A DNA stretch of 64,000 bases from a virus: positions 3,866 through 67,865 of the IMG/VR virus record IMGVR_UViG_3300036406_000522; one strand, given 5' to 3'. Position 1 is the first letter of the stretch; each line of letters opens with the position of its first letter. The translations under genes and the position numbers were made by a program. The notes under the pieces are model-generated. The model was not told the DNA's origin and did no database searches. It saw only the letters and a list, made by a program, of their open reading frames with translations. Positions 3,984 to 30,972 of this stretch are shown piece after piece.

Positions 3984-3993
3984 AAGGAGCAAC

Positions 3994-5910: not shown

Positions 5911-5916
5911 ACAACT

Positions 5917-5940
5917 AGGGTGTCCTTCGGGGCACCTTAA
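5917..5940 (+). terminator. hairpin after nrdJ (possible terminator or processing site)
   Basis: GGGTGTCC-TTCG-GGGCACCT stem-loop, short U tract. Confidence 0.5.
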
Positions 5941-5954
5941 AAATTGGAGAACGT

Positions 5955-7921
5955 ATGAAGGCAGAGATAGTGGCATTGATCATCGTAGGAGCACTCTGTA
6001 TTACCCTCTTACTGATCACAGGTGTGTCCAGACAGAATTACCTAGACTGTCTGGCGAATCAGATGGAAGTGGCAAAGGCGTTGGAGACGGCGAAGTATAC
6101 ACATATTCTGCCAAGTTGTCGCTAAGTACGTAGTAACCTACGAGGAGTTGCACAATGGCAATAGATTTGGCAGTTAAAGAGTTAATTGAAGTAATCGTAA
6201 GAGCAAGGGCAGTCATGACCGCGAATCTAAGTGTATTAGAACTGTCAAGTAATGTCTCCACAACTGAATTGATGCGTGTAGAGATATTCCGAAATGTTCT
6301 GCACGAATATGTCGATGAGCTGACGAGCATGGAAGCAGAGTTGAAAGAGCTGTTCGAATGAGCTACTTCCGTGGCAAGTTCGATGATGGCTATCGTGATG
6401 TGTTCTTCGACGACATCGGAGCCGCGATAGCTGCACTGCACCCTGACCTTGTTGGCGCTCACATCTTCAGGCAGCTGGATGCACTAGGTCTGTATCAATC
6501 ATTCATAGACGGAGAGACGCCTTACGGTCTCCCCTATTCGTTTTCAAAGGAGAAGAAAGATGGCGGATGATATCTATATGCACCCCGCACCTGTAGCGAT
6601 GGTCAACCTGGATGCACCACCAGAACAGATGACGAAAGAGCTGGCAGTGTCGGAGGCATACGGTGTGCTACAAGACATACATGGCAACCTGTCACCCGAT
6701 GGATGGCTACTGAACGGGACAATTGATCCTGGGCGGATTGAGACTGCACTGACGCAGATAGAAGATGCATTTCCCGAGCTGTTCACACCAGCCGAATTTG
6801 ATGACAGCATGGACGGTGATCATGCAAGTGCTCTCGCATCTGCAGGATGGGGTACAGACGAGGACTACGGCGGTGGCGATGGCAACGAACACTTCTAACA
6901 GCAGAATACAGAACCTGTCGTTCGTTCGCCGCTGGTACGGTACGGGTAACATTGAAACACGATTCATAAGGTGTAGCTACGATCAGCAGAAGGAGTTCTT
7001 TGCGGGTGTCCCTCCTGAGCAGTCAATGCCGCACGCTACCAGAGATGACATCGACTTCTTACTTAACACGACGTCAGACATATGAGCGAACCATTCGACT
7101 ACGAGAAGGCTGTTGAGACAGCTGAAGCTAGACGTGACTTCTTGCGAGAGGAATGTGCTAGCTGTAACAACTGCTCGGAGCTAGGGCAGCAGCCACACTA
7201 TGAGCACTGCTACATGTTTCAAGTGCGACCGGAGCTTAATGTATGTTATCATTGGAGACGCAAAGTTGAACAAGAGAAAGCTTAAGAAGTTGGCATCTGT
7301 GGACGTCGAACTTGAACGCTACGTGAAGAACCACCTGTCCGCCAGAAAGATCATGGACAGGTTATTGCCCAAGCTGCAAAAGCTCGGTGAGGAGTGGTGG
7401 AGTGTCACAACAACCGGTAGGGGTTACAGCACAGGTATCTCCATGCGTGATCTGGACGGCTTCAAAGATAATCGCTTGGTGGAAATGCTTGAGCGTATTG
7501 TCGCATTGGATCCTGCTAAGATGCGTTCTAGTGAGTATGCCAATTACAACGAAATCGATTATCACTTCGAGTTCGACAATGTTTCAATCAGCGTGTTCGC
7601 CTACATTAAGGAAGACTCTCCGACATGCCGTAAGGTTGTTACAGGAGAGCGCTACGTGGCTGGACATACCGAATATGACTTCAAAATGGAGTGTGATTAA
7701 TGCTTAAGTATATCGTAACAATCGAGGAGCATATCGAAGGGCCTGATACACAGCGGGTATGGCAAAGACTGCGTGATCAACCTGATGAGCCTGGTGGTGA
7801 TACTCACGGTTATGCGCCAGCTAGCGGCAATACGCGTGTCACCAAGACGGAGGTCTATAAGCAAAGCTTCGATGAGATAGACCTCAAGAAGGTGGTTACA
7901 GCTTTGAATTCGAAGTACTGA
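5955..7921 (+). CDS. cluster of small hypothetical ORFs (5955-6125 membrane; 6155-6361; 6358-6570; 6560-6898; ~6879-7085; 7082-7285; ~7240-7700; 7700-7921)
   Basis: Contiguous ATGA/TAATG-coupled ORFs; no family recognised. Confidence 0.55.
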
Positions 7922-7923
7922 AC

Positions 7924-8430
7924 ATGCATACTATTGAGGAATTCAAAGAGGTAAGCCTCAGCAGTAAGTATCTTGTAAGTAATTTCGGCAGGATACTTAG
8001 TCTTCATACAGGATTGGAGCTAACACAAACAAGAGGACCTTCTGGTTATCTGACCGTGGTCCTTTGTGATGATGGATGTAGGAGTACACAACGCGTACAC
8101 CGTCTGGTTGCGGAGGCTTTTGTTTTAAACCCAGATAAGAAGCCTCATGTGAACCACAAAGATTGTATAAAGACGAACAATCTATATACTAATCTAGAAT
8201 GGACAACACCCGCCGAGAATATAGCACATGCGTACGCAAATGATAGAATAACCAACCTTGGTGAAAAATCGCATTTAGCTAAGATAGACAGAGCGATGGC
8301 CTTACGGATACTGGAGTTGCATCGCGCAGGGGTTAGCAATAGTGTTATCGTAGAGGAGCTGCAGCTAACTAAGAGTATCGTCTCAAAGATAGTATGTGGT
8401 ACGACCTGGAAGGAGCTACACAATGTCTAA
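7924..8430 (+). CDS. HNH homing endonuclease (NUMOD4/HNH_3 type)
   Basis: YLVSNFGRI, VHRLVAEAF, VNHKDCIKTNNLYTNLEW. Confidence 0.9.
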   Translation: MHTIEEFKEVSLSSKYLVSNFGRILSLHTGLELTQTRGPSGYLTVVLCDDGCRSTQRVHRLVAEAFVLNPDKKPHVNHKDCIKTNNLYTNLEWTTPAENIAHAYANDRITNLGEKSHLAKIDRAMALRILELHRAGVSNSVIVEELQLTKSIVSKIVCGTTWKELHNV

Positions 8431-9397
8431 TTTCCGGCCCATGTTTGCTCCCCGAGAGAGTCCTCTCAAGTATCCAAATTACTTCAAGAAGCTGCGTTAC
8501 CCATTGCTGGTAAGTGCTAAGCTTGATGGGATTCGCTGTCTGGTGAAAGGTGCAGAAAAACATGAGTACGACTCGGCGTTCAGAATCATTGATACGCAGA
8601 TGTACTCGGTAGCAAAGAGCCGTACACTAATAGACCTGCCAAGTAAACAAGTGCAGGAAGAATTTTCTGGCTTTCTGGAGTTAGACGGCGAACTCGCGGA
8701 AGGTGATGAGACTGACAAGGCACTGTGCAGGCGTACAATGTCGTACGTAACCTCTGATGACAAGTACTCCGACGACCTAAAGTTCAGGGTATTTGACTGT
8801 TGCGACGTTGACCTTGCAGATGAGCCTTTTGAAGTCAGGCTTGAGTATGCCAGGGATTTGATCTCACGATACAGTTCATTGTTCCCCAACTCGAAGGTGA
8901 GTTTGGTGGAGCATGAGCGTGTCAAGAACCTGGATGAGCTGCTTGAAGTCGAGGCTAAGTTCCTTGGTATGGGGTACGAGGGCGTCATGGCGCGTGATCC
9001 CCTTGGGCGCTATAAGCATGGTAGAGGCACTTTCAAGGAAGGTCTGATCTACAAGCTGAAGCGCTTTCAAGATGATGAGGCAATTCTGGTCGATGTACTG
9101 CCAGGGTTTGACAATCATAACGTCGACATCCGAAGTAACCTAGGTACGGCAAAACGGCAGACACTCAAAGAGAACATGGTGGAGTCGACTCGTGCTGGAA
9201 CGCTTATTGTCGAGTTCAATGGTGCTTTGATTGACATAGCGCCTGGCACACTGACACACCCTGAGCGTGAGCATCTGTTGGCGCACAAGGAAGAGTATAT
9301 CGGAAGGATACTCACATTTCATCACATGACACATGGCGCGAAGGATGCGCCACGATTCGCTGGCTTCTTTACTTGGAGAGATAAGAGAGACATATGA
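8423..9397 (+). CDS. ATP-dependent DNA ligase
   Basis: KLDGIR adenylation motif, LDGEL, FRVFD, EGVM, KLK, PRF. Confidence 0.92.
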   Translation: MSNFRPMFAPRESPLKYPNYFKKLRYPLLVSAKLDGIRCLVKGAEKHEYDSAFRIIDTQMYSVAKSRTLIDLPSKQVQEEFSGFLELDGELAEGDETDKALCRRTMSYVTSDDKYSDDLKFRVFDCCDVDLADEPFEVRLEYARDLISRYSSLFPNSKVSLVEHERVKNLDELLEVEAKFLGMGYEGVMARDPLGRYKHGRGTFKEGLIYKLKRFQDDEAILVDVLPGFDNHNVDIRSNLGTAKRQTLKENMVESTRAGTLIVEFNGALIDIAPGTLTHPEREHLLAHKEEYIGRILTFHHMTHGAKDAPRFAGFFTWRDKRDI

Positions 9398-9810
9398 GCA
9401 GACACATATTTGCAAAGATCGAAGAGCGTCGTATGCCGATAGTAGGTGATCTGATACGCGCCACAAGGAACTCGCCAGACTTCATCAACATCGTGCTGGC
9501 TGTAAGTCCCATACAACGTTCAGCACGTGGTAACTTTGTGTGGATACGTAGTGTCAGGTACGGCACTACTAATAACTGCGATTTCAGGTTGTTGAACGGA
9601 CAACGATCACGTGCGTTCAGATACATACTAGGTGATCGTGGTTATAACGATTGGGATATCGTAGAGGAGTACGTCCTTGCTGGTAATGAGCTTGCAAGGA
9701 TGACAATCGTGAACAGGCTCAAAGATGTGGACACAGCGTGGCGCGATCCTAATGAAGACGTGGAAGGCCTCGATCAGGAGCATGACGATGGTGATATTGA
9801 AGGAACCTAA
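9394..9810 (+). CDS. hypothetical protein, paralog of 15941-16303
   Basis: Shared G.LIR.T...P.FIN.V and LL.G.R.R.F blocks. Confidence 0.65.
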   Translation: MSRHIFAKIEERRMPIVGDLIRATRNSPDFINIVLAVSPIQRSARGNFVWIRSVRYGTTNNCDFRLLNGQRSRAFRYILGDRGYNDWDIVEEYVLAGNELARMTIVNRLKDVDTAWRDPNEDVEGLDQEHDDGDIEGT

Positions 9811-10001
9811 CCAGATCGCAATGTATCGTCTGCTAGCACTTAAGGGAGCACTGAAGCTTGAAATCAAAGGTCTCAAGCATAGCCAAGGCTCAGTATATGC
9901 GCTGGTGAAGAAAGAGTTCGGCTTCAAGGGTAACAAACAACGTGTGCTTGCGCAGCTAGAAGAACACATCTTTGACAAACAACAAATGGAGCTTCCGCTT
10001 A

Positions 10002-10958
10002 ATGGAACAAATTAACTACGGTTTTAAGAAGAGCAGCATCCGTCGTGCGTTGCATAACAAGATTTCTGATTGGTTAAAGTCGATCACGGACGAGACGTTG
10101 GCAGAGGAGATGGCGAAGGGCATCATTGTAACAGGTGGCGCTATCCCATCCATGTTGCTCGGCGAGAAGGTTCGTGACTACGACATCTACTTCAAGACAA
10201 TCGAGTTGGCTGAGAAGGTTGCCAATTACTATGTCAACGAGTTTAACTTGACGACGAAGCAGGCTATTGCTGATGGTGCGAAACCTGATGCCATACCTGT
10301 AACGCCAGAGATTCGGCGTACGAAGGTTGTCAACTGCAAGGGCGAGGAAGAAGAGCGTATTATGATCTTCATCAAGTCCGCAGGTGTAGCTGCTGAGAGC
10401 ACCAGTCCGTACCGCTACTTCGAACAGCTTCACCCAGACAAGGCTGAGGAGTTCATCGATACACTCGCCAAGTCCAAGAAGGATAAGCGTCCGTATCGTC
10501 CTGTCTTCATGAGTCAGAATGCCATCACGCTGTCAGATGGTGTTCAGGTGATCATTCGCTTCTTTGGCGATGCAGCTGGTATCCATCGTAATTTCGATTA
10601 CGTACACGCATTGTCTTGGTACGACTACTACAACAATCACTTGGAGCTCAATCAGAAGTCGCTTGAGTGTCTGTTGTCCCGTACACTCATGTACAGCGGT
10701 AGCCTGTATCCTGTCGCATCTATCTTCCGTGCAAAGAAGTTTATCGAGCGCGGTTGGCGTATTAGCGCAGGTCAGTTGTTGAAGATCATGTGGCAGCTTA
10801 GCGAACTCAAGTTGAGCGACCCTCAGACACTCCATGAGCAACTCACTGGCGTCGACGCGCACTACATGATGCAGCTGGTCAATGCACTGAAGGACACTGA
10901 TCCTGACAAGATCACTGGCGCATACGTAGCTGAGCTTATCGATCGGATCTTCGATTGA
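10002..10958 (+). CDS. Pol-beta-superfamily nucleotidyltransferase (CCA/poly(A)-polymerase head-like)
   Basis: TGGAIPS...VRDYDIYF (GG..DxD), NFDYVH, RAKKFIERGW. Confidence 0.7.
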   Translation: MEQINYGFKKSSIRRALHNKISDWLKSITDETLAEEMAKGIIVTGGAIPSMLLGEKVRDYDIYFKTIELAEKVANYYVNEFNLTTKQAIADGAKPDAIPVTPEIRRTKVVNCKGEEEERIMIFIKSAGVAAESTSPYRYFEQLHPDKAEEFIDTLAKSKKDKRPYRPVFMSQNAITLSDGVQVIIRFFGDAAGIHRNFDYVHALSWYDYYNNHLELNQKSLECLLSRTLMYSGSLYPVASIFRAKKFIERGWRISAGQLLKIMWQLSELKLSDPQTLHEQLTGVDAHYMMQLVNALKDTDPDKITGAYVAELIDRIFD

Positions 10959-11457
10959 GACAGCTTTTTCTGGAGGAATACAGGGGGTCAGGACGCAGTA
11001 CCGTATTAGCGCTAGAGATCATCGCCAAGGCAATGCGGTATCCCGGTACACCTATCAAGGTTTCAGACCATTACAAAGCGGATCGAGCTGATTATCATCT
11101 AACAACGATGATAGACACATACATTCAGCGGTTACAGTTCGATGGATTTACATTCAAGATGCTGCAGGACGGTTGTCATCTAACTTTCAAAGGGCTACGA
11201 TGAGTATAACAAATGAAGAACTAGTGCTGCGCCTGATGAATCATTCGCAACACGGTGTATTGGCACAGGCATTCGTTATAGAGGCGCTTGCAGCTTACGC
11301 ACAGCGTGTCCTCGACCTTGGGGAGCCAGAAGATGACGGCACAGGTCTGATCTCTAAGAAGGCCTGGTTTGCTATTGCAGGAGATGTGTTGCATACCATC
11401 GAGAATCGGAATGATCTGGAAGGTAATCGTATTCAACTTATAGACGGGAGACACTAA
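10955..11457 (+). CDS. two small hypothetical ORFs (10955-11203; ~11200-11457)
   Basis: Coupled ORFs; first has P-loop-like RGSGRS. Confidence 0.5.
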
Positions 11458-12380
11458 TGAAGAGACCACTTGTATTGTATCACGCGTTCTGCACGGATGG
11501 CTTCTGCGCAGCCTTCGAATTGTGGCGTCGTTATGGTGATGCTGCTGACTACAAACCTGTTGACTATGTGAAGTCGCCCGAATACCGTGATGGTATCGTG
11601 ACCAGTTGCGTTGGCAGGGAGCTTGTGTACATGGTGGACTTCAGTCTTCCGCTGCAGAACATGCGCAGCATTCGGAGTGTAGCAGGTAAGTTCATACATC
11701 TCGACCATCACAAGTCTGCATTCGAAGAGCTCGGCTTCGAGGATTATTACGCCGCTGGCTCAGCTGTTGTCAAGCTCGAGGAGGGCACTGGTAGTACGAT
11801 GATCCTCGACAGTAACCGTTCGGGTGCTATGCTGACCTGGCAGTACATCAATGATACTCCCAACGTTCCGTACTATGTCCGTCTTGTTGATGACAGGGAT
11901 CGTTGGAAGTTCGAGTACCTCGAGTCACGTGCCTTTCATGCATTCATGCAGTCGAAACAGCCTTGGACATTCGAAGGTTGGAAAGCGATTGTTGACGACG
12001 CAGTGGCATTTGAAGATGCAATACTGGTGGGCAAAGCTCTCGTGGAGTATATGGATGCATCTGTCAGACGTATCGCCAGGAAGCCGATCTCTTGTAACAT
12101 AGTGATGCCACATGGTCCTGCTAAAGGCTTAGCTGTCAACTCCTCGATACTGCAAAGCGAGGTAGGTGATACGCTGAACAGGACGACTAACTACGGTCTC
12201 GTGTGGTACATGCAAGATCGTGGTATGGTACGTTGCAGCATCCGAAGCAGAGGTACATACGATGTGTCAGCTATCGCAAGGCATTATGGCGGTGGTGGTC
12301 ACCTCAATGCGGCTGGTTTTGAAGTAACTCTCGAGATGCTTAATACTTTTCTGAAGGAGACATATGAAAATCCTAGCTGA
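11457..12380 (+). CDS. DHH/DHHA1 phosphoesterase
   Basis: YH..C.DG, VDFS, LDHHKS, SIRS, GGGGHLNAAG. Confidence 0.9.
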   Translation: MKRPLVLYHAFCTDGFCAAFELWRRYGDAADYKPVDYVKSPEYRDGIVTSCVGRELVYMVDFSLPLQNMRSIRSVAGKFIHLDHHKSAFEELGFEDYYAAGSAVVKLEEGTGSTMILDSNRSGAMLTWQYINDTPNVPYYVRLVDDRDRWKFEYLESRAFHAFMQSKQPWTFEGWKAIVDDAVAFEDAILVGKALVEYMDASVRRIARKPISCNIVMPHGPAKGLAVNSSILQSEVGDTLNRTTNYGLVWYMQDRGMVRCSIRSRGTYDVSAIARHYGGGGHLNAAGFEVTLEMLNTFLKETYENPS

Positions 12381-15168: not shown

Positions 15169-17056
15169 AGCATTTGGCTGACCGTAATCCGATTACAGGT
15201 GCTGCCCTGATAACGCCACCTTCGAATCAGAATTATCGCGACAACTATGATCGTATCTTTCGTCGTACCTATCAACAAGGTAACGAAACATTCGAGGATG
15301 TAGTTACACGTATTACTAACACGATAGAGGCGCAGCTTGGGAGCCGAGAGGATGACATTCAAGAATCCGATTCAGAAGGCAAGGGCTGAACTGCTTCGAC
15401 TGGCATTTCCAAAACTGTGGCACTGGCACTATAATCGTTTCATCCGACGACTAAGGGAGATAATATGGTGGAGATTTTGAAGACGAATCGTTTCACGACA
15501 CAGCGCAAAGAACAGATTGGCAAGGAGTCACTTATTCTAGGTCGTACAAAAGAAGGTGACTACGTCATCATCTGGGAGAAGGATGTCTTTCGCCACGTAA
15601 AAGGGTTTACTCATCTGATGAACATTCTACATGCCAGCGAGAACAGAGACAAAATGGTCGAGCGATTTGAAGAAACGGTATTTGATCAGGCGAGGAAAAC
15701 GATACGTCACTTCAAATGGAGGTATCAGCCGTCAGGAGGTTACCATGCCGAAGCTCATTGATTGTGTTACTGTAACAAAATACACTCCAGAGCGTCCTAT
15801 CTTCATCGTCGGTGGATTGTCATTGGAAGCTTACAAAGCTGGGTTCGTTGTATTGAACCCACAGTTCAGAGCAACACAGGCTGCAATATATCAGGGCGTA
15901 GCACATCTCAACGAATACCTTGAAAGGCATAGGAATGACAATGAACAGTAACCGTTTTGTTCACGTGGATAAGGAGATCAATGTTGGATGCCTTATCCGA
16001 CATACTGATGCCACACCTAACTTCATCAATGTTGTCCACAAGATAACACGTGGTGTAGCTCCAGGTGAATTGCGTATCTATAGCACGCGTATCTTCAGGA
16101 TAGTAAATGGTGAGGTTACTTTACTAAAGGGCACACGAGCGCGACCCTTTAGCCATTTCCCGCAAGGACGCTGGCACTCATGGCATGTTGTCAAGCGCGT
16201 AATAGAGACTGATGTCGACACGGAGAACGACGTACTGGTAGCACTCGCAAGAGGTTTCGATTTGTATCAACCGCATGGTGGCGACACCGATCATAGGCCT
16301 TAAAAGGGGAGACGCATGAGTTATCGTAATCGTAAGTTGCGTGAGAAAGAGCGGCAGTCTCGCGCAGCTATATGCGCACTACAAGGTAAACAGCGATGAA
16401 AATCAAGATAACAGATGTCCACGCTGACGATGCTTTCGTCAATCTGAAACCTACCTTGAAGGATGTTATCTTTGAGGTGGAAAAGGAGAATATCAAGCCG
16501 TCTGTATCATATGACGGTTGGCATGAGATTGGAGAGGCTTTCTGTAGCTTGAGTGCATTCCCTTATTTCTTCGCAGGTGCGCGGTACAAGGTTGTGAAGT
16601 AATCTCAGCGGAAGCTGAGGAGCAGCAACGTTACTTGTGACATACGTTGTCAAGTGTAAGGCACACGCGGTTTGCCGATGCGTTATTCGGCTATTTTTAA
16701 ACGTATAGGAGTGACACCAATGAGTACAAACAATATGTCGACGCAAACTTCTAAGGGGGATACGTGTAATACGAAACAAATAGATTGTTGTCTGCAATGC
16801 GCGGGTGCGGATACCAATCTATTTGCTTTAAGGGGGTATTTTTGCTTTTTCACCAGAGGGGACATGAATGAGTAAGAAATGTAGTAAGGATGAACTTGAT
16901 TACCTTGCATTTGTACGCGAGGAAGAGGACTACACAAATGAGCTAGGCGCTATCACACTCTGTGATTTGCTCACGAGCATCGATCAAAAGGCAGTTAATC
17001 CACGCAGAGAGTTATGCCATGCTATGGCCGCTCTCAGTTCAGACTACTTAGGGTAA
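15165..17056 (+). CDS. small hypothetical ORFs (15165-15389; 15465-15761; ~15745-15951; 15941-16303; 16396-16602; 16868-17056)
   Basis: RBS-preceded short ORFs in one orientation. Confidence 0.55.
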
Positions 17057-17061
17057 ATCAA

Positions 17062-17394
17062 ATGATCATTGCATTAGATTACGACGGAACATTTACAGAA
17101 GACCCCGCCTTGTGGACCACATTTGTGGACAATTGCATCAGTAAAGGCCATCGTGTAATAATGGTTACGATGCGTTTTGCTTCTGAGGGTATCGGCAGCA
17201 ACGAGCACATTGTAGGGCACGAGCATGTGTTCTATACGGGTCGTACAGCTAAGAAGCAATTCATGACGGCGTTAGGTATTCATCCGCATGTCTGGATTGA
17301 TGATCATCCGCAGTCAGTATTTATGGACGCGGAACAGATCTGGGGTGTGTCTCTTCCAGAGGGTCATACCGATTCACGAAACGCTGTAAGGTAA
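17062..17394 (+). CDS. HAD-superfamily phosphatase (small, capless)
   Basis: IIALDYDGT motif I, VTMR motif II, K and WIDD motifs. Confidence 0.8.
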   Translation: MIIALDYDGTFTEDPALWTTFVDNCISKGHRVIMVTMRFASEGIGSNEHIVGHEHVFYTGRTAKKQFMTALGIHPHVWIDDHPQSVFMDAEQIWGVSLPEGHTDSRNAVR

Positions 17395-17397
17395 GGT

Positions 17398-17673
17398 TTT
17401 ACGGCTCAGCCCCATACGAGGGTCTGAGAGGTGGCGATGGGAGATCAAACCATCAATTCGTACGGTACTACTTACCTGATGATAAGGGTATGATAGTGCA
17501 AGCTGTTGATTTTTAGCAGGGTGCTGGATACGGTGCCACTGTGAAAGTCAGCAACCTGTATTACATTCGGGAGGCCTATTGCTGAGCATACAGAGTCCTG
17601 CTAACTTAGTGAAACAGGAGGATTGGAGCATGAGCTATGGCTGTGCACCCCTGAGTGTAATATGGGTTGTAAA
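17398..17673 (+). ncRNA. putative ~275-nt structured RNA directly upstream of tRNA-Ile2
   Basis: Five helical domains incl. 21-bp helix 17551-71/17650-70 with several G.U pairs; no ORF. Confidence 0.6.
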
Positions 17674-17749
17674 GGCCCTTTAGCTCAATGGTTAGAGCAG
17701 AGGACTCATAATCCTTTGGTTGTCGGTTCGAGTCCAACAGGGGCCACCA
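17674..17749 (+). tRNA. tRNA with CAT anticodon, Ile2 (lysidine) type rather than Met
   Basis: Full cloverleaf GGCCCTT..AGGGGCC-A-CCA, loop CTCATAA; body resembles enterobacterial ileX. Confidence 0.9.
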
Positions 17750-17766
17750 TTTAACTAGGAGTAGAA

Positions 17767-18330
17767 ATGAAAGCCAATCTTGAGAATGATAGTTTCTTCC
17801 TGGATCTAGTCATCGACGGAATAATAGCAGTCGATGAGGATGGAAACGTAGTTAATAATCGTACAGGCAAGGCGATAGGTTTTATAACAGGCGGTTACAA
17901 GCGCATTAGTATGTTTGGGAGAACATGTGCAGTTAACCGGTTGGTTTACATGGTCTATGTTAATGAAAGTATCCCTGCCGGCTACTTAGTGAATCATAAG
18001 GATGGTAACAAGCTGCACAACCACCCTAATAATCTCAACCTTAAGACAGAGAGCGAAAACAACTCCCATGCGTATAGCGCAGACCTGCGCGAAATAAATC
18101 TGGAGCACCTTAGTACTATTTCTGGAGGTCATAGAAATGGTATGGCAGCGCTCAATACTGCGCAGGTCAGGGCTTACAGAGTACATTTCGACAACTCTGA
18201 GGTGACTATCGCAGATATAATAGCGGACTCTGGCCTGTCAAGGAAGGCAGTTGTGCAAATGCTCAACGCCAAAACATACACGGAGATACCGTATCGTATT
18301 TCGAGATCAACCAGAAAACACGGTTCTTAA
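17767..18330 (+). CDS. HNH homing endonuclease within the tRNA cluster
   Basis: VNRLVY, VNHKDGNKLHNHPNNL, ENNSHAY. Confidence 0.85.
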   Translation: MKANLENDSFFLDLVIDGIIAVDEDGNVVNNRTGKAIGFITGGYKRISMFGRTCAVNRLVYMVYVNESIPAGYLVNHKDGNKLHNHPNNLNLKTESENNSHAYSADLREINLEHLSTISGGHRNGMAALNTAQVRAYRVHFDNSEVTIADIIADSGLSRKAVVQMLNAKTYTEIPYRISRSTRKHGS

Positions 18331-18337
18331 CATGTGA

Positions 18338-18422
18338 TCGAGGGTGGAGAAATTGCTAGACTCAGCGTTCTTAAACAGCGCCGCCGCAAGGCATGCGGGT
18401 TGGAACCCCGTCCCTCGAACCA
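18338..18422 (+). tRNA. tRNA-Leu(TAA), class II, atypical elbow
   Basis: TCGAGGG/CCCTCGA-A-CCA; anticodon arm GCGTT-CTTAAAC-AGCGC; long variable arm; T loop TTGGAAC. Confidence 0.8.
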
Positions 18423-18430
18423 GGCACCAT

Positions 18431-18505
18431 TCCCCGTTAGCTCAGTGATAGAGCAATCGCCTTGTAAGCGATAGGTCGTCTGTTTGATCCAGACACGGGG
18501 AACCA
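18431..18505 (+). tRNA. tRNA-Thr(TGT), atypical elbow
   Basis: TCCCCGT/ACGGGGA-A-CCA; ATCGC-CTTGTAA-GCGAT; T loop TTTGATC. Confidence 0.85.
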
Positions 18506-18534
18506 TTTGATGTTCTTAATGAAGGGAGACAACG

Positions 18535-19161
18535 ATGCCAACCAAGCGCTGCAAACTGTGTAAGAAGGACAAGAGTTTTAGTGAATTCAGAAGAGCAGGA
18601 GAGACTGGCACCAGCAAAGACGAGGCGCGCTACTATACCGTCTTCTGCAATAAGTGCACTATCAGACTATCACAATGGAAACGACCAATAGATGGGTTGT
18701 GGCTATGTAAAGGCTGCAATCGCATATTACCAATTGATAAGTTTGTTAGTCAGTCGCACTGTTATGATTGCAGGAAAAGTAGCGGTGCTCTTGCCAGAAA
18801 GGTAGCGTACACTAAGATGCGAAGAGTGAAAAAGCCAGTAGCATCTCGTGATGAACAACGTAGATTAATGAAGAGGTATAACGAAACCCTTCATGACACC
18901 TATATCAAGATATTTCTATCGAACAAGTTTAAAATACCATTCAGAGACATGTCGCCAGAATTAATAGCCGCACAACGTGAGATCTTGAGACTGCAAAGAG
19001 CTATCGCAGTAAAGATGTGTGTCAAGCCTGCAACCATTGGTGTGTGGTCCTCTCTGCTCAGACGAGGTAGAACACCAAAATATGATATCAAGCATAAGGT
19101 ATCATTTAATTCCCTCAAAAATCTTGAGGATAACCTGTTCAAAATGATAGGAGTCGAATGA
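18535..19161 (+). CDS. basic protein with four CxxC pairs (Zn-finger, probably DNA-binding)
   Basis: CKLC, CNKC, CKGC, CYDC. Confidence 0.65.
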   Translation: MPTKRCKLCKKDKSFSEFRRAGETGTSKDEARYYTVFCNKCTIRLSQWKRPIDGLWLCKGCNRILPIDKFVSQSHCYDCRKSSGALARKVAYTKMRRVKKPVASRDEQRRLMKRYNETLHDTYIKIFLSNKFKIPFRDMSPELIAAQREILRLQRAIAVKMCVKPATIGVWSSLLRRGRTPKYDIKHKVSFNSLKNLEDNLFKMIGVE

Positions 19162-20506
19162 TGGCTAAGCAAGTGACGTTGGTAGTAGACGGTCTGTTCG
19201 CCCATACAATGGGTGTTCTTAAAGGTCGTATTAATCCGGTGCACGCTCTCGCAGCTGCTGCTATGGTAGACACGATGGTTCGCGCATCTGCAGAGGAGTC
19301 GAAGCACCAACGTTATCAGAAGAAGGTACCGAGAGTTAAGTTCTTCGATACAAACATCACAGAGCAGACAGCCGCACAAGCTGTGCAAGAGGTCGTCGAA
19401 CAAGAGGTTGAGACCCGAAAGGCGAAGGCATTGGCACGTAAGCTACTGAAAGTCGAATTGGAGACTAAGATGACAAAACCTGTCACGAATGCCTCAAGAA
19501 AAGTTATCACTAAGCGTAAGACCAATACAAAGGAGAAGTAAGCATGGCTGAATGTAAAGCAGCAGGTCGTCACAAGCGTTCGCCCGCAATGGCGACCTAC
19601 CGTAATGGCAATCGTGCCGACGTCAATAAGACGAAGAAGATGAAGCGTCACAAGCTCAAGATGGAGCGCCGCGCCAGTCATCTGACGAAGCGTTTCAATG
19701 AGCAGAAGCCGCAACGTGGTGATGCACGCCATTATCGTCGTGTTGGCATAAAGCCGCAAATCCCGATTGACCAGCAGGTTGTTGCATACCAACCGTCCAG
19801 GCCGCGTGAACATACCAGGATCCAGCGTAACAACATCAATCTGCATCAGGTTGGATTGGGTCGCGTAGCGTGAGTAGTCCTCGAAAGAGAGCCTCAAGGT
19901 TAAAAGCAGAACAAGCGCTGGAGACCTTGAGGCAGAAACTCATTCTTGCTGAAACGCAGTGTAACCTCTGGAGGACAGGCGCTGAGCTAATAGATGCACA
20001 GCTTAAGCAGCTCACCATCGAGGCTACAGCATTGCGTGATGAAGTAAAACAACTGAAGGGGAGGATAATTGGATGACAAGCGCAAAGACAATCAGGCCTG
20101 ACGATTGGATAACCCCACGGCCACTATGGAACGCTACTACAGGTAACAAGGGGCAGCACTTCGCAGAGAAGGTTCGTGTGTGGGATGTAGATCGACACGC
20201 TGTATGCGACACGGGAGTGCTACTCGAGGTTATGACACTCGATGGTTCCATGCGAAGGATGTCAGCTGCATGGTTCATGGACAAAGACGGTAAGGTATTT
20301 CATTATTAATGAATCTCACTCCAGAACTAAAAGCTAAGATCGACGAATTGGACTACGAGTCGTTACTCCGAAAGTGGCGATTCGCTGTCTGTGGAGCTGA
20401 ACTCTTCCAGGGAGCATCGGGAGAGTACTTCAAGCAACGCATGATTGAACTCAGGGATAAACATCCTGAGCCACATGTTGTATCAAAACGAGTAGGCTGG
20501 AATTAA
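19158..20506 (+). CDS. hypothetical ORFs (19158-19541; 19544-19873 very basic; 19870-20076; 20073-20309; 20309-20506)
   Basis: Coupled ORFs with RBS. Confidence 0.6.
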
Positions 20507-20655: not shown

Positions 20656-20813
20656 AATACTTGCTGGTGGTAGTGTTTCTACTATCAGGATGTGCATCAC
20701 AACCGTCAATTCTTACAGGCTCAGGTGTAGAAATGCCTGCACCAGCTCAATGGCAGAAGCTTTGCAACGACCGGCCTGAACTCGAGATATGTAAACCTGA
20801 GGTCGCCAAATGA
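20652..20813 (+). CDS. 53-aa lipoprotein (not in the ORF track)
   Basis: GTGA overlap; MKYLLVVVFLLSG/C lipobox; C-x3-P-x4-C. Confidence 0.7.
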   Translation: MKYLLVVVFLLSGCASQPSILTGSGVEMPAPAQWQKLCNDRPELEICKPEVAK

Positions 20814-21169
20814 AGTTCAGCGAACTAAAGGCAGTCAACAGTGAATTCAATCAATACACTTATGAAACAGAAATAGGTGATGACTGGACGCCAATTGACC
20901 TGACTCTCGACAAGGAAGATGATTGTGATAGTTATGCAACAGCCAAGGCTGAACGTCTCATCAAGATGGGTTGGTCTAAGTCTGCTCTCCGTATCGGCTT
21001 CTGTCGTACCGAAACAGGTGGTGGCCATCTAGTACTCCTGGTTGACTTCGAAGGTCAGACATACGTACTGGACAACCGCTTCGCACTACCAATGGAGTAT
21101 CAGTTGTTATCTTACACCTGGATTGGCTTTGGCCATATCGATACAGGTAAGTGGGAAATGGCAAAGTGA
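20810..21169 (+). CDS. transglutaminase-like cysteine protease (BTLCP/LapG, Peptidase_C93-like)
   Basis: L.AVN..FN, DWTP, DCDSYATAK (Cys), GHLVLLV (His), YVLDNR (Asp). Confidence 0.8.
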   Translation: MKFSELKAVNSEFNQYTYETEIGDDWTPIDLTLDKEDDCDSYATAKAERLIKMGWSKSALRIGFCRTETGGGHLVLLVDFEGQTYVLDNRFALPMEYQLLSYTWIGFGHIDTGKWEMAK

Positions 21170-21176
21170 TCTCTAT

Positions 21177-21244
21177 GAGACCCTATTCGGTGCCTTCGGG
21201 TGCTGGATAGGGTCTCTCCCCTTTTTTTTTTTTTTTTTTTTTTT
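21177..21244 (+). terminator. strong terminator: 18-bp stem, cUUCGg loop, T24 tract
   Basis: GAGACCCTAT..ATAGGGTCTC, then TCCC and 24 T (21221-44). Confidence 0.8.
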
Positions 21245-21326
21245 GTGCTCAGGTTACAAGACACTTGCATCGAACAAAGTCTATGAACCTTTTTCTGTAA
21301 CGAGGGTACCGCAAATCAAGCGGGGA

Positions 21327-21365: not shown

Positions 21366-21398
21366 CCTTACAGCTGCTAAGGGAGATGTCCCTAGCCT

Positions 21399-21480
21399 GT
21401 ACATAGGGGTGAACATAGAGATGTACACAGAGGTGAACATAAGGGTGTACAATAGGATGTCGCTAAGGTGACATAGGGGT
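21399..21480 (+). repeat. seven imperfect 11-12-bp tandem repeats
   Basis: GTACATAGGGGT GAACATAGAGAT GTACACAGAGGT GAACATAAGGGT GTACAATAGGAT GTCGCTAAGGT GACATAGGGGT. Confidence 0.8.
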
Positions 21481-21714
21481 GAGACTAATTATGATTGTAT
21501 CATTATAGATAGAGATATAAGGAAGTAACATAGAGAGGTACATTAAGGTGGCGAATGATCTGAAACAATTGAAATGCTCAAAGGATGTGGCATTGAGCGT
21601 GGGCATCTCAATTCTCTCAGGGGAAGTTGTAGGTAGAACGAGGGAGTGCAGTTATAGGAAGCACATGAAAGTGCCTGATACAGATGGGCTAACAAAACGC
21701 GAAAGGTATGCAGC

Positions 21715-22224
21715 ATGTCCGATATTCCGGAGAAAGTACCAGCTGGTCTGGCTCTGTCTGTGTCAATGGAAGAGCCACAACAACCAGCTTGGAAGGGTGG
21801 CAGCAAGAGTGGCAGTAGACACACAAAGCTTGCCTATAGTAAGGAGAGTATTCGTAAGCTGGAGAAGATCGGGTTTGATCCCCTTCTAGAGATGGTGTCA
21901 CTGTACAGGCGAGTGCGTAGCCAGATTGACAGGCAGGAGTTACTGCAAGAAGCACAAGACATCGCACGTGAGAATAAATTAGAGGGCCAGGTGAAGAACG
22001 GTTATTCTTCTATGGCGCTTGAAGGCTTTATGAATACCGCAAGCAAAGTGCTCTCCGACATGATACCTTACCGTTACGCTAAAGTGCCAGTGGAAGAGGC
22101 CGAGAAAGATGGAGCACCGCCACCGCTCATCATTGAGACAACTAAAGAAGGTGAGATGTTCATCATAGACCCATTGAACGAGTCTACGTATGCACAGGAG
22201 GAGGACTTCCGAAATGGCGATTAA
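21715..22224 (+). CDS. probable terminase small subunit
   Basis: Immediately upstream of terL; GFDPLLEMV...L.PYRYAK pattern. Confidence 0.6.
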   Translation: MSDIPEKVPAGLALSVSMEEPQQPAWKGGSKSGSRHTKLAYSKESIRKLEKIGFDPLLEMVSLYRRVRSQIDRQELLQEAQDIARENKLEGQVKNGYSSMALEGFMNTASKVLSDMIPYRYAKVPVEEAEKDGAPPPLIIETTKEGEMFIIDPLNESTYAQEEDFRNGD

Positions 22225-26271: not shown

Positions 26272-26337
26272 CATTTCAGGGTGTCTACTACAGTGGGCAC
26301 TCTGGAGTTCTTATTCAATAACAACAAGAGGAGTTTC

Positions 26338-29300
26338 ATGAGCACTAATGCCAACACAGCCATCTACGATAAGCTTGTAGATCGCGCTGCTATGTTACGT
26401 CTATATGAGGAGCGTGTTGCCGGTAAGGTTACCACGATAATAGACGGGCACAAGGTTCGCATTATTGACATCATACTCGCTAACAAGGCGAAGATGACGC
26501 CTAAGATGCGGGAAGAGATAGACATACAGTTGCGCAAGACGTATGGTAACGCTTTCAATACAAGCTCTAAGTCGCTAATGGATTTGGTTAACGATCAGTT
26601 ATCCTACACATACCAGAAGATGGATAATGTGGTGGGTAAGATCTGGCGTACAGCCAAGCCTAATTATCGCATCTCAGAAGACATTGTGCTTAAACGCCCA
26701 TTGTATAATGATGTGACACTGATGGGTGGCTGGACGAGTGTTAGCATTGCAGAGCGCAAACGTCTCGAATCACTTATACGACGTGGTATCGCAGAGGGGC
26801 TAGATGAAAAAGCAATCGCATTGTCTGTTAGGGATGGTAATGTGTTCACCATATCTAAGCAGCAATCTATTGGCCTCGTCCGTACTGCTATTACGTCTGT
26901 TCGTTCACAAACAGATCATGAGGTGTACAAGGCAAATGAAAAGATTCTCACTGGCTGGCAGTATGTCGCTGTTCTGGACTCTCGTACGACGCCACTCTGT
27001 CAGCATCGTGACGGTACTGTGTATCCTATCAGTGATACTGCACATCTTCCTCCTGCTCACTGGTACTGCCGAAGTACTACCATCCCAATAACCAAGTCGT
27101 ATGACCAGCTTGGTGAACTCGAGGGTGTAGCACAGATACGTAAACGTAACTTGGAAGGGTTGACGCAGAAACAGATCGCCTTCTATGATGGACAAACTCC
27201 GTTAAAGGAGAGTTACAGCGAATGGTTACAGAGGCAGCCTACTGATGTTCAGCTAAGGCATCTTGGTGATAATACTCGACTAGAGTTATTTCGTAGTGGT
27301 CAACTAACCGTAGACAAGTTTACAACACCTGCTGGTAATTCTGTCGGCATCAATGAGCTACGTAGAATGACAGATGATGGCTACGGTATTGGTAATACGA
27401 AGAAATTCGCCATTGCTAAAGAGCAGCTAGACCGTCTTAAGCTAGGCGCAGCTAGGCCTGAAGAGCTAATAGACTCTCCTGATATGGTGGCTGCATTACG
27501 CAACTACTATATGCTGCAAGCCAAAGACCTTGATGGTAATCTGTCATTGACAAACTACCGAGGCAATCTGCTGCACACAAAGAAGGCTACTAAGGCGCGT
27601 GTATTGAACAGCCCTCCTACAGAGGAACAGTTATTGTTCAATCCATTAACAGGACGTTATGATGACAGCAGGATATTTCAACCGAATCAGGCTGTCTTAA
27701 AGAATAACCTCAGGTTAGTCGAAGACTCTGTTAGCTTAAAGAGAGCTGACAAGGATTTTATCAAGAAGTTTGTGGATGATCTAGATGGACATCTAGGTGC
27801 TAACGAACGAGCTGTTATAACTGACAACCTACGTATCGTGTTCACACGCTTCCGTGATAATAAGGAGCCATGGACGAATCTTAAGGCCGTTCTCAATGGT
27901 CAGATCAAGTTCGACATAATGAACGTTTCTGATTACATCGAGACACAGCTACGTCGTGACCAGAATTTCCTTCTCAAGCTGAAACAAGACATGTACATCG
28001 ATCCTGTCCTAGGGCCGGTGCAGCTACAAGACCTGCATGATAACTTCATAGCTAACATCAGGGCAAAGAACAAGTGGGAGGATAGTGTAGCACCGAAGAT
28101 CGCAAGAGAACTGCGCAACATCTTCGACTACAAGATTCCTTACAAGATCAGAACACGATTGAAAGAAGATGGAGACCATCAGTTAGACCAGTTCTACCTA
28201 CGATTTGCCAATAGATTAGCAATGGCAGATAGCCCTGATAGAGACCAACTCGCTGTTGCGCTAGGTCGTGATTTATACAATGCAGCAAACTATCGAGGCA
28301 ATAGGAAAGAATGGTGGCTCCTTGGTAACAAATTACTGGACAACGCTAAGGCTAAGGGTTTCTACGAGCTTGAAACGCGTGGTGTCCAAAAGAGACGAAT
28401 GCGAAGCCGCAATTTTGGGAAGTATTTCGGTCCTGCTTACGATACTAATTCTGTTGTGGTCGTCGTTCATGATCCTCGTATTCTTGAATACGCAAAGCTA
28501 ACTCGTAAGGTTGATGTAGGTCTGCGTGTGAGCGCAACTACAGAGCACAACAGGTTGCGAATCAGAGAGGGTTACAAGACGTACTTCACAGATGAAGGAC
28601 TATTCGGGTACTACGATACTCGCATCCCTATAATCTCTGAGTCGTCATTCAAGGACTTCCCTGAGAAGCTAATCGACAAGGACATGACGTCTGCACTAAA
28701 TTGGGCAGCTCAAACGAAATACAAGGTTGATCCTGACTTTCACGACTTCATTGACAAGTTACTTCACTTTACTGACGACAAGGGACGGGCTAAGTACTAC
28801 AGCGAGGTGAATCACTATCGCGAGTATATGAGTGGCCGTGGAGACGCGTATGAGAGATTCAAAGCAATGTCATGGCTTAGGGCTAAGGATAGTTCTTTTA
28901 GCAATCATCCTTTTCTCGACCATCGTGCACGTATCTATGAGAGAGGCTTCATCGGCCCACAGGCGGGTGAAAGCTTTAGGCCGTTCCTTAATAGTGCTGT
29001 ATCGAAAAAGTTTAATGAGCAAGGATACCTGAACCTTCAGGACCAGATTGGTGGCTTTATTGGTGGCCTCTCTGATAATCTAGAAGGAAAGTACAACGCA
29101 CTGTCTGTACTAGGTAGGCAAGAGATAGCTAAGAAACATAGACCAGAAATGGTCAAGATAGGTTATCACATGCTACGTGGTAAGCCTGCTGACATCCGCG
29201 CTGTCCTGGATTCGAAGTTCGTCCAAGAGATAGATGGCGAGGATTTAGGTAAGGCACTGCGTCTGTCGCTCGAAATGGCTAAGATAGATCGCTTCCTAGA

Positions 29301-30972
29301 TGGTGACTACTCTGATCTGTCAAAGCTCAAGGGTTACGATATTGCAGTCGCATTAGAGCAAGATGCCAGTTCTTCTGGTGCGCAGATCATCGCGTTAACT
29401 ACGAAGAATAAGCAGCTTGCTGAATTGTCTAATGTACTCGCAACGAATCAGAAGAAGCGGTTGTATGACGAAATCGCTGCACTTACTTTCAACGATCCTC
29501 GATTCATTAAGTTGAACCAGAAGCTTGGTTTGACTGAGAAGGATCTTCGGAAGGCAAGTAAGGCACAAAACATGGTCACATTCTATGGTGCAGGTCAACG
29601 CACTGGTGCTATGAATGTGGAAACAAAGCTGGCCAAGGCATTGGGAAAGAATGAAGGTCTGCTCGTTGTGAAAGCATCTGAGCGTGACAAAGTACTCGAT
29701 GAGATCGCTGCTAGAGCGGCGCGCTTTGAGAGATTCGATCCTGACACTGCATCTGAGCTAAAGGCTTTGAGACAAGATGTCAAGGATATCTTCAACCGAG
29801 GTGTAGATCCTGGTGATGACCTCTTAGAGGACTTATGGTTCCTAGAACCGAAGACCTACGAGTTCGTCGAGAAGCTATCTCGATCATACGATAAAGTTGT
29901 AACACCTAATGATTTCAAGCTTATTGCTGAGATCATGAGCGAAAATCTTGCTGTACAGGTTCCTATTCTTAAGGACTTCACACGTTACTTTGGTAGACTA
30001 GCTGAGGACTTCCTCACTAGTGCCAAGCCGAATGAAGCGTCCTTCGACGAAGCTAAGATCCTGCGGCAGATGCTTTTCGGTGCTTACAAGGCTGGCGACA
30101 AACTACCACCGCGTGTGGCAGAGTTGTTGGGTACAAAAGCCAGTGAATCAATCAGCGAGAAATTCCTTAAGCGTGTCCCTTGGTATAAACCAGGAGACTT
30201 ACTATCTGAAGTCATTTACGGTGTTAAAGCTCCATTGGACAGACGTACTGGCACTACACTTGGAAAGGTAAAGTTCAAGTTAGGTGCGATCGAAGAGACA
30301 CTCTACGGAGGCTTCGATGTACTGTATCCGAACAAGATGCCGAAACAATGGACGAACATCCCTTGGGTTAATTTTGATGGCAAGGTTATTGAACAGAATT
30401 TCACACAGGCGTTCGAAGAGCGATTAGTGTATCGTGATGCAAATGGTGATTGGGTGACCAACATCCTCATGATCAAACAGAAGACTGACCCTACGTGGTG
30501 GGAAGAGTTCAGAAACAAAACAGACACCATGAGGGACATTGCTGATGTAAACAAAGCTAGAACAGCCTTTGCCGTTAACGGAAACCATGCTAATGACGCC
30601 ACACTTGTGAAGCAGTATCATCTATGGGGACGTAAGAACAACATACCTACTGCTACGGTGCATGACGCGTTCATGGCCAACGCTGCCGATCTATTGAAGT
30701 CAAGGGATGCACTTAGGGAAATCTATGCGAATGTTCTGGATAAGAACGTTATCCTAGACACACTTAACGAAATGCGTGATAGAGGCTTGTCTAAGGAACT
30801 CTATGACAAGTATCTGAACGAAGCTATTGACATTGGATTGATACCTATCGCTGGTCGATCTGTTGTCGGTGGTAAGAAGTTACAAGAGAGTGATATTCTG
30901 AAGAAGAGCGATGTCTTAGTAAAGATAACGCACGACTTCAAGGGTAATCATTACTGGTACGGAATTGGATAA
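26338..30972 (+). CDS. head morphogenesis (MuF/SPP1 gp7) protein fused to a T7-family single-subunit RNA polymerase
   Basis: MuF: YVAVLDSRTTPLC..RDG...PPAHWYCRS; RNAP: LDHRARIY..GPQ, motif A EQDASSSGAQ, motif B RKASKAQNMVTFYG, NGNHANDA, motif C VHDAF; AGAGGAG RBS. Confidence 0.92.
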   Translation: MSTNANTAIYDKLVDRAAMLRLYEERVAGKVTTIIDGHKVRIIDIILANKAKMTPKMREEIDIQLRKTYGNAFNTSSKSLMDLVNDQLSYTYQKMDNVVGKIWRTAKPNYRISEDIVLKRPLYNDVTLMGGWTSVSIAERKRLESLIRRGIAEGLDEKAIALSVRDGNVFTISKQQSIGLVRTAITSVRSQTDHEVYKANEKILTGWQYVAVLDSRTTPLCQHRDGTVYPISDTAHLPPAHWYCRSTTIPITKSYDQLGELEGVAQIRKRNLEGLTQKQIAFYDGQTPLKESYSEWLQRQPTDVQLRHLGDNTRLELFRSGQLTVDKFTTPAGNSVGINELRRMTDDGYGIGNTKKFAIAKEQLDRLKLGAARPEELIDSPDMVAALRNYYMLQAKDLDGNLSLTNYRGNLLHTKKATKARVLNSPPTEEQLLFNPLTGRYDDSRIFQPNQAVLKNNLRLVEDSVSLKRADKDFIKKFVDDLDGHLGANERAVITDNLRIVFTRFRDNKEPWTNLKAVLNGQIKFDIMNVSDYIETQLRRDQNFLLKLKQDMYIDPVLGPVQLQDLHDNFIANIRAKNKWEDSVAPKIARELRNIFDYKIPYKIRTRLKEDGDHQLDQFYLRFANRLAMADSPDRDQLAVALGRDLYNAANYRGNRKEWWLLGNKLLDNAKAKGFYELETRGVQKRRMRSRNFGKYFGPAYDTNSVVVVVHDPRILEYAKLTRKVDVGLRVSATTEHNRLRIREGYKTYFTDEGLFGYYDTRIPIISESSFKDFPEKLIDKDMTSALNWAAQTKYKVDPDFHDFIDKLLHFTDDKGRAKYYSEVNHYREYMSGRGDAYERFKAMSWLRAKDSSFSNHPFLDHRARIYERGFIGPQAGESFRPFLNSAVSKKFNEQGYLNLQDQIGGFIGGLSDNLEGKYNALSVLGRQEIAKKHRPEMVKIGYHMLRGKPADIRAVLDSKFVQEIDGEDLGKALRLSLEMAKIDRFLDGDYSDLSKLKGYDIAVALEQDASSSGAQIIALTTKNKQLAELSNVLATNQKKRLYDEIAALTFNDPRFIKLNQKLGLTEKDLRKASKAQNMVTFYGAGQRTGAMNVETKLAKALGKNEGLLVVKASERDKVLDEIAARAARFERFDPDTASELKALRQDVKDIFNRGVDPGDDLLEDLWFLEPKTYEFVEKLSRSYDKVVTPNDFKLIAEIMSENLAVQVPILKDFTRYFGRLAEDFLTSAKPNEASFDEAKILRQMLFGAYKAGDKLPPRVAELLGTKASESISEKFLKRVPWYKPGDLLSEVIYGVKAPLDRRTGTTLGKVKFKLGAIEETLYGGFDVLYPNKMPKQWTNIPWVNFDGKVIEQNFTQAFEERLVYRDANGDWVTNILMIKQKTDPTWWEEFRNKTDTMRDIADVNKARTAFAVNGNHANDATLVKQYHLWGRKNNIPTATVHDAFMANAADLLKSRDALREIYANVLDKNVILDTLNEMRDRGLSKELYDKYLNEAIDIGLIPIAGRSVVGGKKLQESDILKKSDVLVKITHDFKGNHYWYGIG

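Follow-up and report, generated by a model that had tools for sequence, protein, structure and literature searches.

The tertiary pair 19:56 is the outermost pair of the tRNA L, and RNase P, the T-box and the ribosomal L1 stalk all stack on it. In the accessible parts of two papers, G18 and G19 are termed 'constant' or 'virtually universally conserved' (PMC9976931, PMC4117946), and leucine identity in Escherichia coli is described as relying on A73 and on the tertiary pairs that link D loop and T loop (PMC9976931). For the tRNA-Leu of Aquifex aeolicus, the available portion of the report gives no measurable charging after the single change G19C and a return to 0.54 of the wild-type value in the double mutant G19U:C56A, showing that leucyl-tRNA synthetase (LeuRS) requires the 19:56 pair and not its letters (PMC2377443). 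The present analysis concerns two adjacent genes on the + strand of a 64,000-nucleotide stretch of viral DNA, hereafter the window (positions 3,866 to 67,865 of the IMG/VR record IMGVR_UViG_3300036406_000522): a class II tRNA-Leu(UAA) at 18338–18422, in which this pair is C19:G56, and a class I tRNA-Thr(UGU) at 18431–18505, in which it is A19:U56. The swaps are real and recurrent in phages, and A19:U56 is kept in a relative. With a probability of roughly 0.6, the tRNAs of the window would be working elongators for UUA, ACA and AUA, and the swaps near-neutral compensated substitutions.

A paper in eLife on phage tRNAs that resist defence reportedly places the determinant in the anticodon loop and sets out the idea of resistance by substitution. 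Bacterial Schlafen is described, in the accessible part of the source, as cleaving the anticodon arm of tRNA. According to the available sections of the respective reports, the determinant of resistance lies in the anticodon stem-loop for T5 tRNA-Lys against PARIS (PMC11464382) and in the variable loop for SP15 tRNA-Tyr against Retron-Eco7 (PMC12673091). A swapped elbow is encoded by phage T5 itself: its tRNA-Ile1(GAU) (NC_005859, gene T5t02) has the D loop AGCGATCTA, with G18-A19, and the T loop TTTAAAT, with U56. It is the only swap among the 23 tRNAs called by ARAGORN in the T5 stretch, the other 22 having passed the canonical check; the record notes that it becomes an amber suppressor once its anticodon is replaced, and of 245 phage records that match the gene, 192 do so with an identity of 99% or more. 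No literature on the elbow of T5 tRNA-Ile1 was found, a search for the suppressor work yielding a review only. Searches for A19-U56 or C19-G56 gave a single paper, on transfer-messenger RNA, supplementary tables that possibly list such variants lying outside their coverage, and searches combining G19-C56 or the tRNA elbow with phage gave nothing on phage tRNAs.

ARAGORN made three tRNA calls in the window, the last two exactly where the initial annotation had placed tRNA-Leu and tRNA-Thr, and the cloverleaves are not products of chance, given that shuffling the window 50 times, which yielded 3.2 Mb of sequence, produced 0 calls. tRNA-Leu has AAATTGCTAGA as its D loop, where 18355 is G18 and 18356 is C19, and TTGGAAC as its T loop, where 18402 is G56; in tRNA-Thr the D loop AGTGATA holds G18 at 18447 and A19 at 18448, and the T loop TTTGATC holds U56 at 18485. 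Both exchanges, first reported by the initial annotation, were borne out by ARAGORN and by covariance alignment. RF00005 aligned tRNA-Thr with A at model G19 and U at model C56 (63.7 bits, gathering threshold 29), and R1, a tRNA-Leu model of our own, derived from 26 other phage tRNA-Leu genes and applied with its filters disabled, aligned tRNA-Leu over its full length with C at G19, G at C56 and zero non-standard stem pairs (73.5 bits, E 4.9e-18). The accompanying U1:A72 pairs, intact stems and CCA ends can be read directly from the sequence and the ARAGORN structure. The acceptor strands are TCGAGGG/CCCTCGA in tRNA-Leu and TCCCCGT/ACGGGGA in tRNA-Thr, both genes end in A73 followed by an encoded CCA, and in both all stems are paired and U8, A14, G18, U33, U54, U55, R57, A58 and G53:C61 are retained. 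tRNA-Leu forms a class II cloverleaf with a 7-bp acceptor, a 3-bp D, a 5-bp anticodon and a 5-bp T stem, the last closing a 7-nt loop, and its long variable arm has a stem of its own in the ARAGORN structure. It departs from its class at G19:C56, where the pairing is retained and the letters are changed. tRNA-Thr departs from class I both there and at the first acceptor pair, U1:A72 replacing the G1:C72 of most tRNA-Thr, which in E. coli is an identity element for threonyl-tRNA synthetase. Neither gene displays the broken stems, lost invariants or uncompensated tertiary changes of a tRNA pseudogene.

The third call, a tRNA with anticodon CAU on the + strand at 17674–17749 (66.6 bits with RF00005), combines a D-loop GG with the T loop TTCGAGT, and is thus canonical at the elbow, as had been stated from the start. 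It is probably tRNA-Ile2, which would read AUA after lysidine modification, and this label is reasonable because E. coli genes annotated as tRNA-Ile match it from end to end at 88.2% identity. In a count of 17,110 codons of the phage, the share of ACA among Thr codons is 33%, that of ATA among Ile codons 26% and that of TTA among Leu codons 10%.

The closest relative in IMG/VR, the contig L001 (terminase identity 72%), encodes tRNAs Leu(UAA), CAU, Thr(UGU) and Arg(UCU). Its tRNA-Thr (L001:3865-3939) retains A19:U56 and differs from that of the window in two acceptor pairs, both changed on both sides, one D-loop letter and the 3' end; the kept elbow together with the compensated stem changes points to purifying selection on tRNA-Thr. 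Its tRNA-Leu is canonical (G19:C56, C1:G72) and differs from the window gene at about 24 positions, mostly as paired stem changes. The initial annotation had held that uncompensated change at 19 and 56 in relatives would count against its claim, and in L001 both tRNAs are paired there. L001 has its Met (CAU) and Thr genes next to each other, 79 nt apart, and its Leu gene some 900 bases upstream, whereas in the window a gene for an HNH endonuclease and tRNA-Leu separate the CAU tRNA from tRNA-Thr; because the order differs, tRNA-Leu may have moved or arrived separately, as occurs where tRNA clusters are rich in homing endonucleases, that of T5 being an example. Of two exact-pattern scans for close copies of tRNA-Leu, one had 0 matches and the other matched the L001 contig only. 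A terminase scan of metagenomes gave 4 loci, none with a tRNA, and the loci L002 and L003 likewise carry none. Within the 2702-5263 region of L001, tRNA-Arg(UCU) overlaps the end of that contig's own HNH gene.

These observations bear on whether the genes take part in translation at all. One or both might be copies in decay, or elements of tRNA shape retained for some other role, for instance as signals for transcript processing or as the target or passenger of the adjacent HNH endonuclease. tRNA-Leu, which adjoins the HNH gene in an order unlike that of L001, is the gene that would suit this explanation: RF00005 does not report it even at E<=10, and its minimum free energy (MFE) fold is not a cloverleaf (z = -1.56), the MFE structure of tRNA-Thr being one (z = -3.0). 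The tRNA-Leu cloverleaf, however, lies at -27.9 kcal/mol against an MFE of -30.2, just 2.3 above it, and the MFE folds of the canonical CAU tRNA and of the L001 tRNA-Leu are likewise not cloverleaves. RF00005 scores the L001 tRNA-Leu at 55.2 bits and another C19:G56 tRNA-Leu at 44.9 bits. Judged on its letters, the window tRNA-Leu is probably a sound class II tRNA, because R1 gives it 73.5 bits over the full length without a non-standard pair, and its absence from the RF00005 matches would be due to the limits of that generic model or of its filters. Decay, moreover, would not re-pair 19:56, all stems and the other conserved nucleotides are intact, the matching codons are heavily used, and tRNA-Thr persists in the diverged L001 with compensated stem changes. 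We therefore regard exclusion from translation as very unlikely, and the earlier description of both genes as intact and not decaying was upheld.

The frequency of such swaps in phages was estimated from an IMG/VR scan with the window Thr anticodon arm (positions 22-48), a pattern that excludes 19 and 56, which matched at least 118 loci. ARAGORN, run on the viral loci from the scans together with the window, called 815 tRNAs, 616 of them distinct and 607 of these with a 7-nt T loop. Among the matches listed, position 56 is C in 598 of the 607, U in 7 and G in 2, and all nine non-C56 tRNAs have the complementary base directly after G18. In the 72 distinct phage tRNA-Thr(UGU), the elbow pair is G:C in 68, A:U in 3 and C:G in 1, with no one-sided change or unpaired 19:56, and the first acceptor pair is G:C in 69 and U:A in 3. 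The window C19 D arm had 36 pattern matches in IMG/VR, 35 of them outside tRNAs, and the sole tRNA, a Leu(CAA) in the locus L275, has G56. Selection to hold 19:56 as a Watson-Crick pair, which the initial annotation had proposed, is thereby well supported at the level of sequence comparison (9/9 non-C56 tRNAs compensated, 0/72 tRNA-Thr(UGU) unpaired); selection for particular letters is unsupported.

Elbows that look uncompensated do occur: in 8 of the 598 tRNAs with C56 the D loop has no GG, in some cases through what look like true mismatches. They would suit genes on their way out of translation, as would several in L275; at the same time, the similar frequencies of compensated (9/607) and uncompensated-looking (8/607) elbows fit frequent damage followed by loss or rescue. 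The share of phage tRNAs without G19:C56 would be about 1-6%. The swap is thus rare and recurrent in phages; two different swaps side by side are unusual, and the variation itself is already present in known phage sequences.

In the whole tRNA sets of five swap-carrying contigs, the swaps make up 3/20, 1/5, 1/24, 1/34 and 1/33 of the tRNAs. The three belong to L248 (contig G001, 130,816 bases; 7749-11874) and comprise Met/Ile2 with A19:U56, Thr with C19:G56 and Trp with A19:U56; a tRNA-Ala of L248 has an odd T loop, AGCATAG. L275 (21,345 bases, 31% G+C; 4277-9108) holds 13 tRNAs with unusually many elbow variants: the pair is A19:U56 in Gly and Ile(UAU) and C19:G56 in Leu(CAA) and Arg(UCU), several others appear to set U19 or C19 against C56, and two carry G55. 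A change at another tertiary interaction was observed in L023, L050 and one bacterial locus, whose tRNA-Thr(UGU) has the T arm GAGAT-CTCGGAA-TTCTC, with C for U54 and G for A58, which may be a paired change of 54:58.

Bacterial controls came from a scan with the Thr anticodon arm, one genome per species, which gave at least 120 loci. C56 was present in 129/129 distinct tRNAs of the bacterial loci listed. None of 401 bacterial genomes of one phylum had a tRNA with an A19 D arm, 7 pattern matches having been rejected as not being tRNAs, and the canonical D-arm form occurred 64 times in the first 61 of these genomes. The statement in the initial annotation that G19:C56 is almost universal accordingly holds for the bacterial controls, without exception, and is too strict for phage tRNAs. 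The comparison of phages with bacteria at 19/56, akin to the survey of phage and host tRNAs that it had proposed, found swaps in phages and none in bacterial controls, with weak significance: for Thr(UGU), 3/71 distinct phage tRNAs (window left out) against 0/120 bacterial loci listed (one-sided Fisher p = 0.05); for all tRNAs, 7/604 in phages against 0/129 distinct bacterial tRNAs listed (p = 0.61); and for the D-arm variant relative to the canonical form, 2:47 in phages against 0:64 in 61 bacterial genomes (p = 0.19), the last reaching p = 0.01 only when the canonical count is extrapolated to 401 genomes. An enrichment of swaps in phages over bacteria is therefore only suggestive.

The same controls speak to the idea that the swaps mirror the host, whose own tRNAs or elbow-reading machinery would deviate and be followed by those of the phage. 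The nearest cultured phages share just 52-56% terminase identity, which leaves room for an unusual host. The third window tRNA and the L001 tRNA-Leu are nevertheless canonical, the bacterial tRNAs examined contain no swap, and T5 combines one swap with 22 tRNAs that pass the canonical check, in a host, E. coli, whose CAU tRNA-Ile genes closely resemble the canonical CAU tRNA of the window. A match to a deviating host is, in our judgement, highly improbable.

A second possibility is adaptive recoding of the upper half of the tRNA, in which the changed elbow, perhaps together with U1:A72, would evade a host or competitor factor that reads the elbow; this factor could be a nuclease acting on tRNA, a toxin with nucleotidyltransferase or acetyltransferase activity, or a phage enzyme by which host tRNAs are destroyed. 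The recoded tRNAs would still fit RNase P, synthetases and the ribosome. Several observations are in keeping with it: in the accessible parts of the PARIS and Retron-Eco7 papers, phage tRNAs resistant to nucleases are established, with determinants elsewhere in the molecule; swaps seem to be more frequent among phages than among bacteria; they affect two of the three window tRNAs and three of 20 in L248; both window tRNAs also carry U1:A72; and A19:U56 is held unchanged across T5-like phages. Yet the elbow, T loop and D loop go unmentioned in the available portions of the PARIS, Retron-Eco7, Schlafen and eLife tRNA papers, and an anti-phage nuclease that reads the elbow is absent from the literature searched, as far as the accessible texts extend. 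The swaps are spread over Thr, Leu, Met/Ile2, Trp, Arg, Val, Ile and Gly and are mostly singletons within large sets, their clustering within loci is not significant (P = 0.26, in a sample taken without regard to 19/56), the L001 tRNA-Leu is canonical, and no enzyme that modifies, repairs or cleaves tRNA was found with Pfam and PHROGs in the 34 open reading frames (ORFs) of the window that were scanned. Faster, less constrained evolution would predict a phage enrichment equally well. The step that the initial annotation had taken from compensated swaps to an escape from a tRNA-targeting nuclease or toxin accordingly gains no support over drift from this analysis. Such recoding appears unlikely, and it is quite unlikely that the elbow letters, possibly with the first acceptor pair, serve as a self-versus-host mark in the conflict between phage and bacterium, an undiscovered defence or phage enzyme reading G19:C56 and phages including T5 keeping a few A:U or C:G tRNAs that survive or are orthogonal.

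As near-neutral compensated substitutions in working tRNAs, the swaps would arise as follows. The phage would carry tRNAs for Leu, Thr and, in the Ile2-like gene, Ile to read the heavily used A-ending codons UUA, ACA and AUA. At the elbow, a different Watson-Crick pair would have taken over position 19:56, with C:G in Leu and with A:U in Thr, and because one Watson-Crick pair replaces another, the dock between D loop and T loop would be preserved, and with it processing, charging and use on the ribosome; the stacking partners would need a flat Watson-Crick pair, whatever its letters. The route from G:C to A:U could run through a G.U wobble, and a damaged intermediate could last until it is rescued, because phage tRNAs evolve fast and duplicate a host function.

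Several points weigh against this account. The change from G:C to C:G would require two transversions through a mismatch, and although this would be more survivable in a gene that duplicates a host function, the Aquifex G19C mutant, with its lack of measurable charging, shows what such a mismatch can cost. U1:A72, rare in both isotypes (3/89 phage tRNA-Thr, 1/54 phage tRNA-Leu), adds another oddity to this half of the tRNA. The silence of RF00005 on tRNA-Leu counts here as well, and among the sequencing runs that contain window DNA no RNA runs are listed from which expression, processing or charging could be judged; that the tRNAs function and that the swaps are neutral is what we infer, not what is shown. 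At a background of 7/604, two or more swaps among three tRNAs have a nominal probability of 4e-4, to be read in the knowledge that the window was selected for its oddity out of a very large scan, and the three swaps in 20 tRNAs of L248 one of 1.5e-3; these values leave room for a genome-level cause. The co-occurrence in two of three tRNAs was not taken as evidence of a genome-wide cause, because the window was preselected and, in the sample taken without regard to 19/56, chance alone yields one two-swap locus about a quarter of the time.

The source record is a 67,865-base IMG/VR virus with a completeness rating of 98%, most of which is covered by the window; the latter has a G+C content of 48% and carries nearly all its genes on the + strand. 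Its left part serves replication and nucleotide metabolism and encodes, among other proteins, an exonuclease, a primase-helicase, a ribonucleotide reductase, an ATP-dependent DNA ligase, a DHH phosphoesterase and several HNH endonucleases, and its right part the large terminase, portal, scaffold, a 2,421-amino-acid tape measure and tail fibres, and because of the latter set the phage is, by gene content, a siphovirus of about 68 kb from lake water. By terminase, the nearest cultured phages are the Ruegeria phages DSS3_VP1 and DSS3_PM1 (56%) and EBPR siphovirus 1 (52%); the cultured-phage collection held no close relative, with matches at the tRNA level only and a top terminase identity of 56%. 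Window DNA is contained in 23 DNA runs from lake-water metagenomes, the source sample possibly among them. Contigs from three of these runs equal the window across the tRNAs, with no variant letters, as far as contigs, which cannot reveal minor variants, can tell; in a fourth lake-water run only generic tRNA parts matched.

The end of the early region is where the three tRNA genes are found, some 3.7 kb upstream of the terminase gene. A 187-amino-acid ORF resembling HNH homing endonucleases (17767–18330, + strand; Pfam HNH_3, E 7.6e-07; PHROG 59 HNH endonuclease, E 3.4e-22) separates the CAU tRNA from tRNA-Leu and stops 8 nt short of the latter. On the other side, a 208-amino-acid ORF with a Cys-rich N terminus and no Pfam or PHROGs match (18535–19161, + strand) starts 30 nt past tRNA-Thr, and the tRNAs are therefore embedded in a one-strand gene run. 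A promoter and terminator scan of 16800-19400 was uninformative, its counts not exceeding those of shuffles. Further downstream, 21178-21245 contains a G+C-rich hairpin (GAGACCCTAT...ATAGGGTCTC) with about 24 T after it; this element, immediately ahead of the packaging genes, looks like a strong terminator ending the early region that holds the tRNAs; a hairpin with a run of about 21 T occupies the equivalent place in L001 (about 6066-6118). Imperfect direct repeats of a ACATAGGGGTGA-like unit at 21390-21550 lie just upstream of what is probably the small terminase gene, at 21715, and may serve as a recognition site for packaging. The ORF at 20810-21169 (119 amino acids) matches the bacterial transglutaminase-like cysteine proteinase family PF06035 (E 6.6e-15), an unusual cargo for a phage early region. 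At 26281-30972, a 1,563-amino-acid protein matches head-morphogenesis and minor-head-protein families at its N terminus and, in its C-terminal part, PHROGs annotated as RNA polymerase (phrog_414, E 1.6e-15; phrog_2051, E 7.7e-10), and is possibly a fusion of a head protein with an RNA polymerase that travels in the virion.

Taken at face value, the two genes confirm from nature that what the corner of the tRNA requires is a Watson-Crick pair and not G and C as such, and they suggest that phage tRNAs explore this freedom at roughly 1-6%, which the bacterial control tRNAs did not. For annotation, RF00005 missed an intact tRNA-Leu, and phage tRNA annotation or counts that use Rfam alone can therefore miss genes of this kind. 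Because compensated drift already yields such oddities, they also provide a baseline for claims of counter-defence built on unusual phage tRNAs. For the question of whether the elbow letters matter at all, T5 tRNA-Ile1 and E. coli form a tractable pair.

Compared with the systems described so far, the swaps of the window have counterparts in both natural and engineered tRNAs. Among uncultured phages, the tRNA-Thr(UGU) of L016 has C19:G56, as does the tRNA-Leu(CAA) of L275, whose D loop is identical to that of the window tRNA-Leu (AAATTGCTAGA), and A19:U56 is found in Thr, Trp, Met/Ile2, Arg, Val, Gly and Ile tRNAs of other contigs. These come from unrelated phages that mostly have one swap per tRNA set, whereas the window has two of three, and the uncompensated-looking elbows of L275 have no equivalent in the window. 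The Aquifex G19U:C56A mutant is, like the window tRNA-Leu, a class II tRNA-Leu with another Watson-Crick pair at 19:56, but that pair is U:A and not C:G, and it was made in the laboratory and assayed in vitro with the enzyme of one thermophile, the window gene being a natural phage gene. The tRNAs that resist PARIS and Retron-Eco7 are phage copies of host tRNAs with a few differences that have a function, their determinants lie outside the elbow and the matching host nuclease is known, in contrast with the window tRNAs. T5 tRNA-Ile1 shares A19:U56 with the window tRNA-Thr, both being phage-encoded elongators, and it sits in a tRNA cluster interspersed with HNH endonuclease genes, as the window also has an HNH gene among its tRNAs; it differs in isotype, in sequence and in its first pair, A1:U72, and both T5 and its host are cultured.

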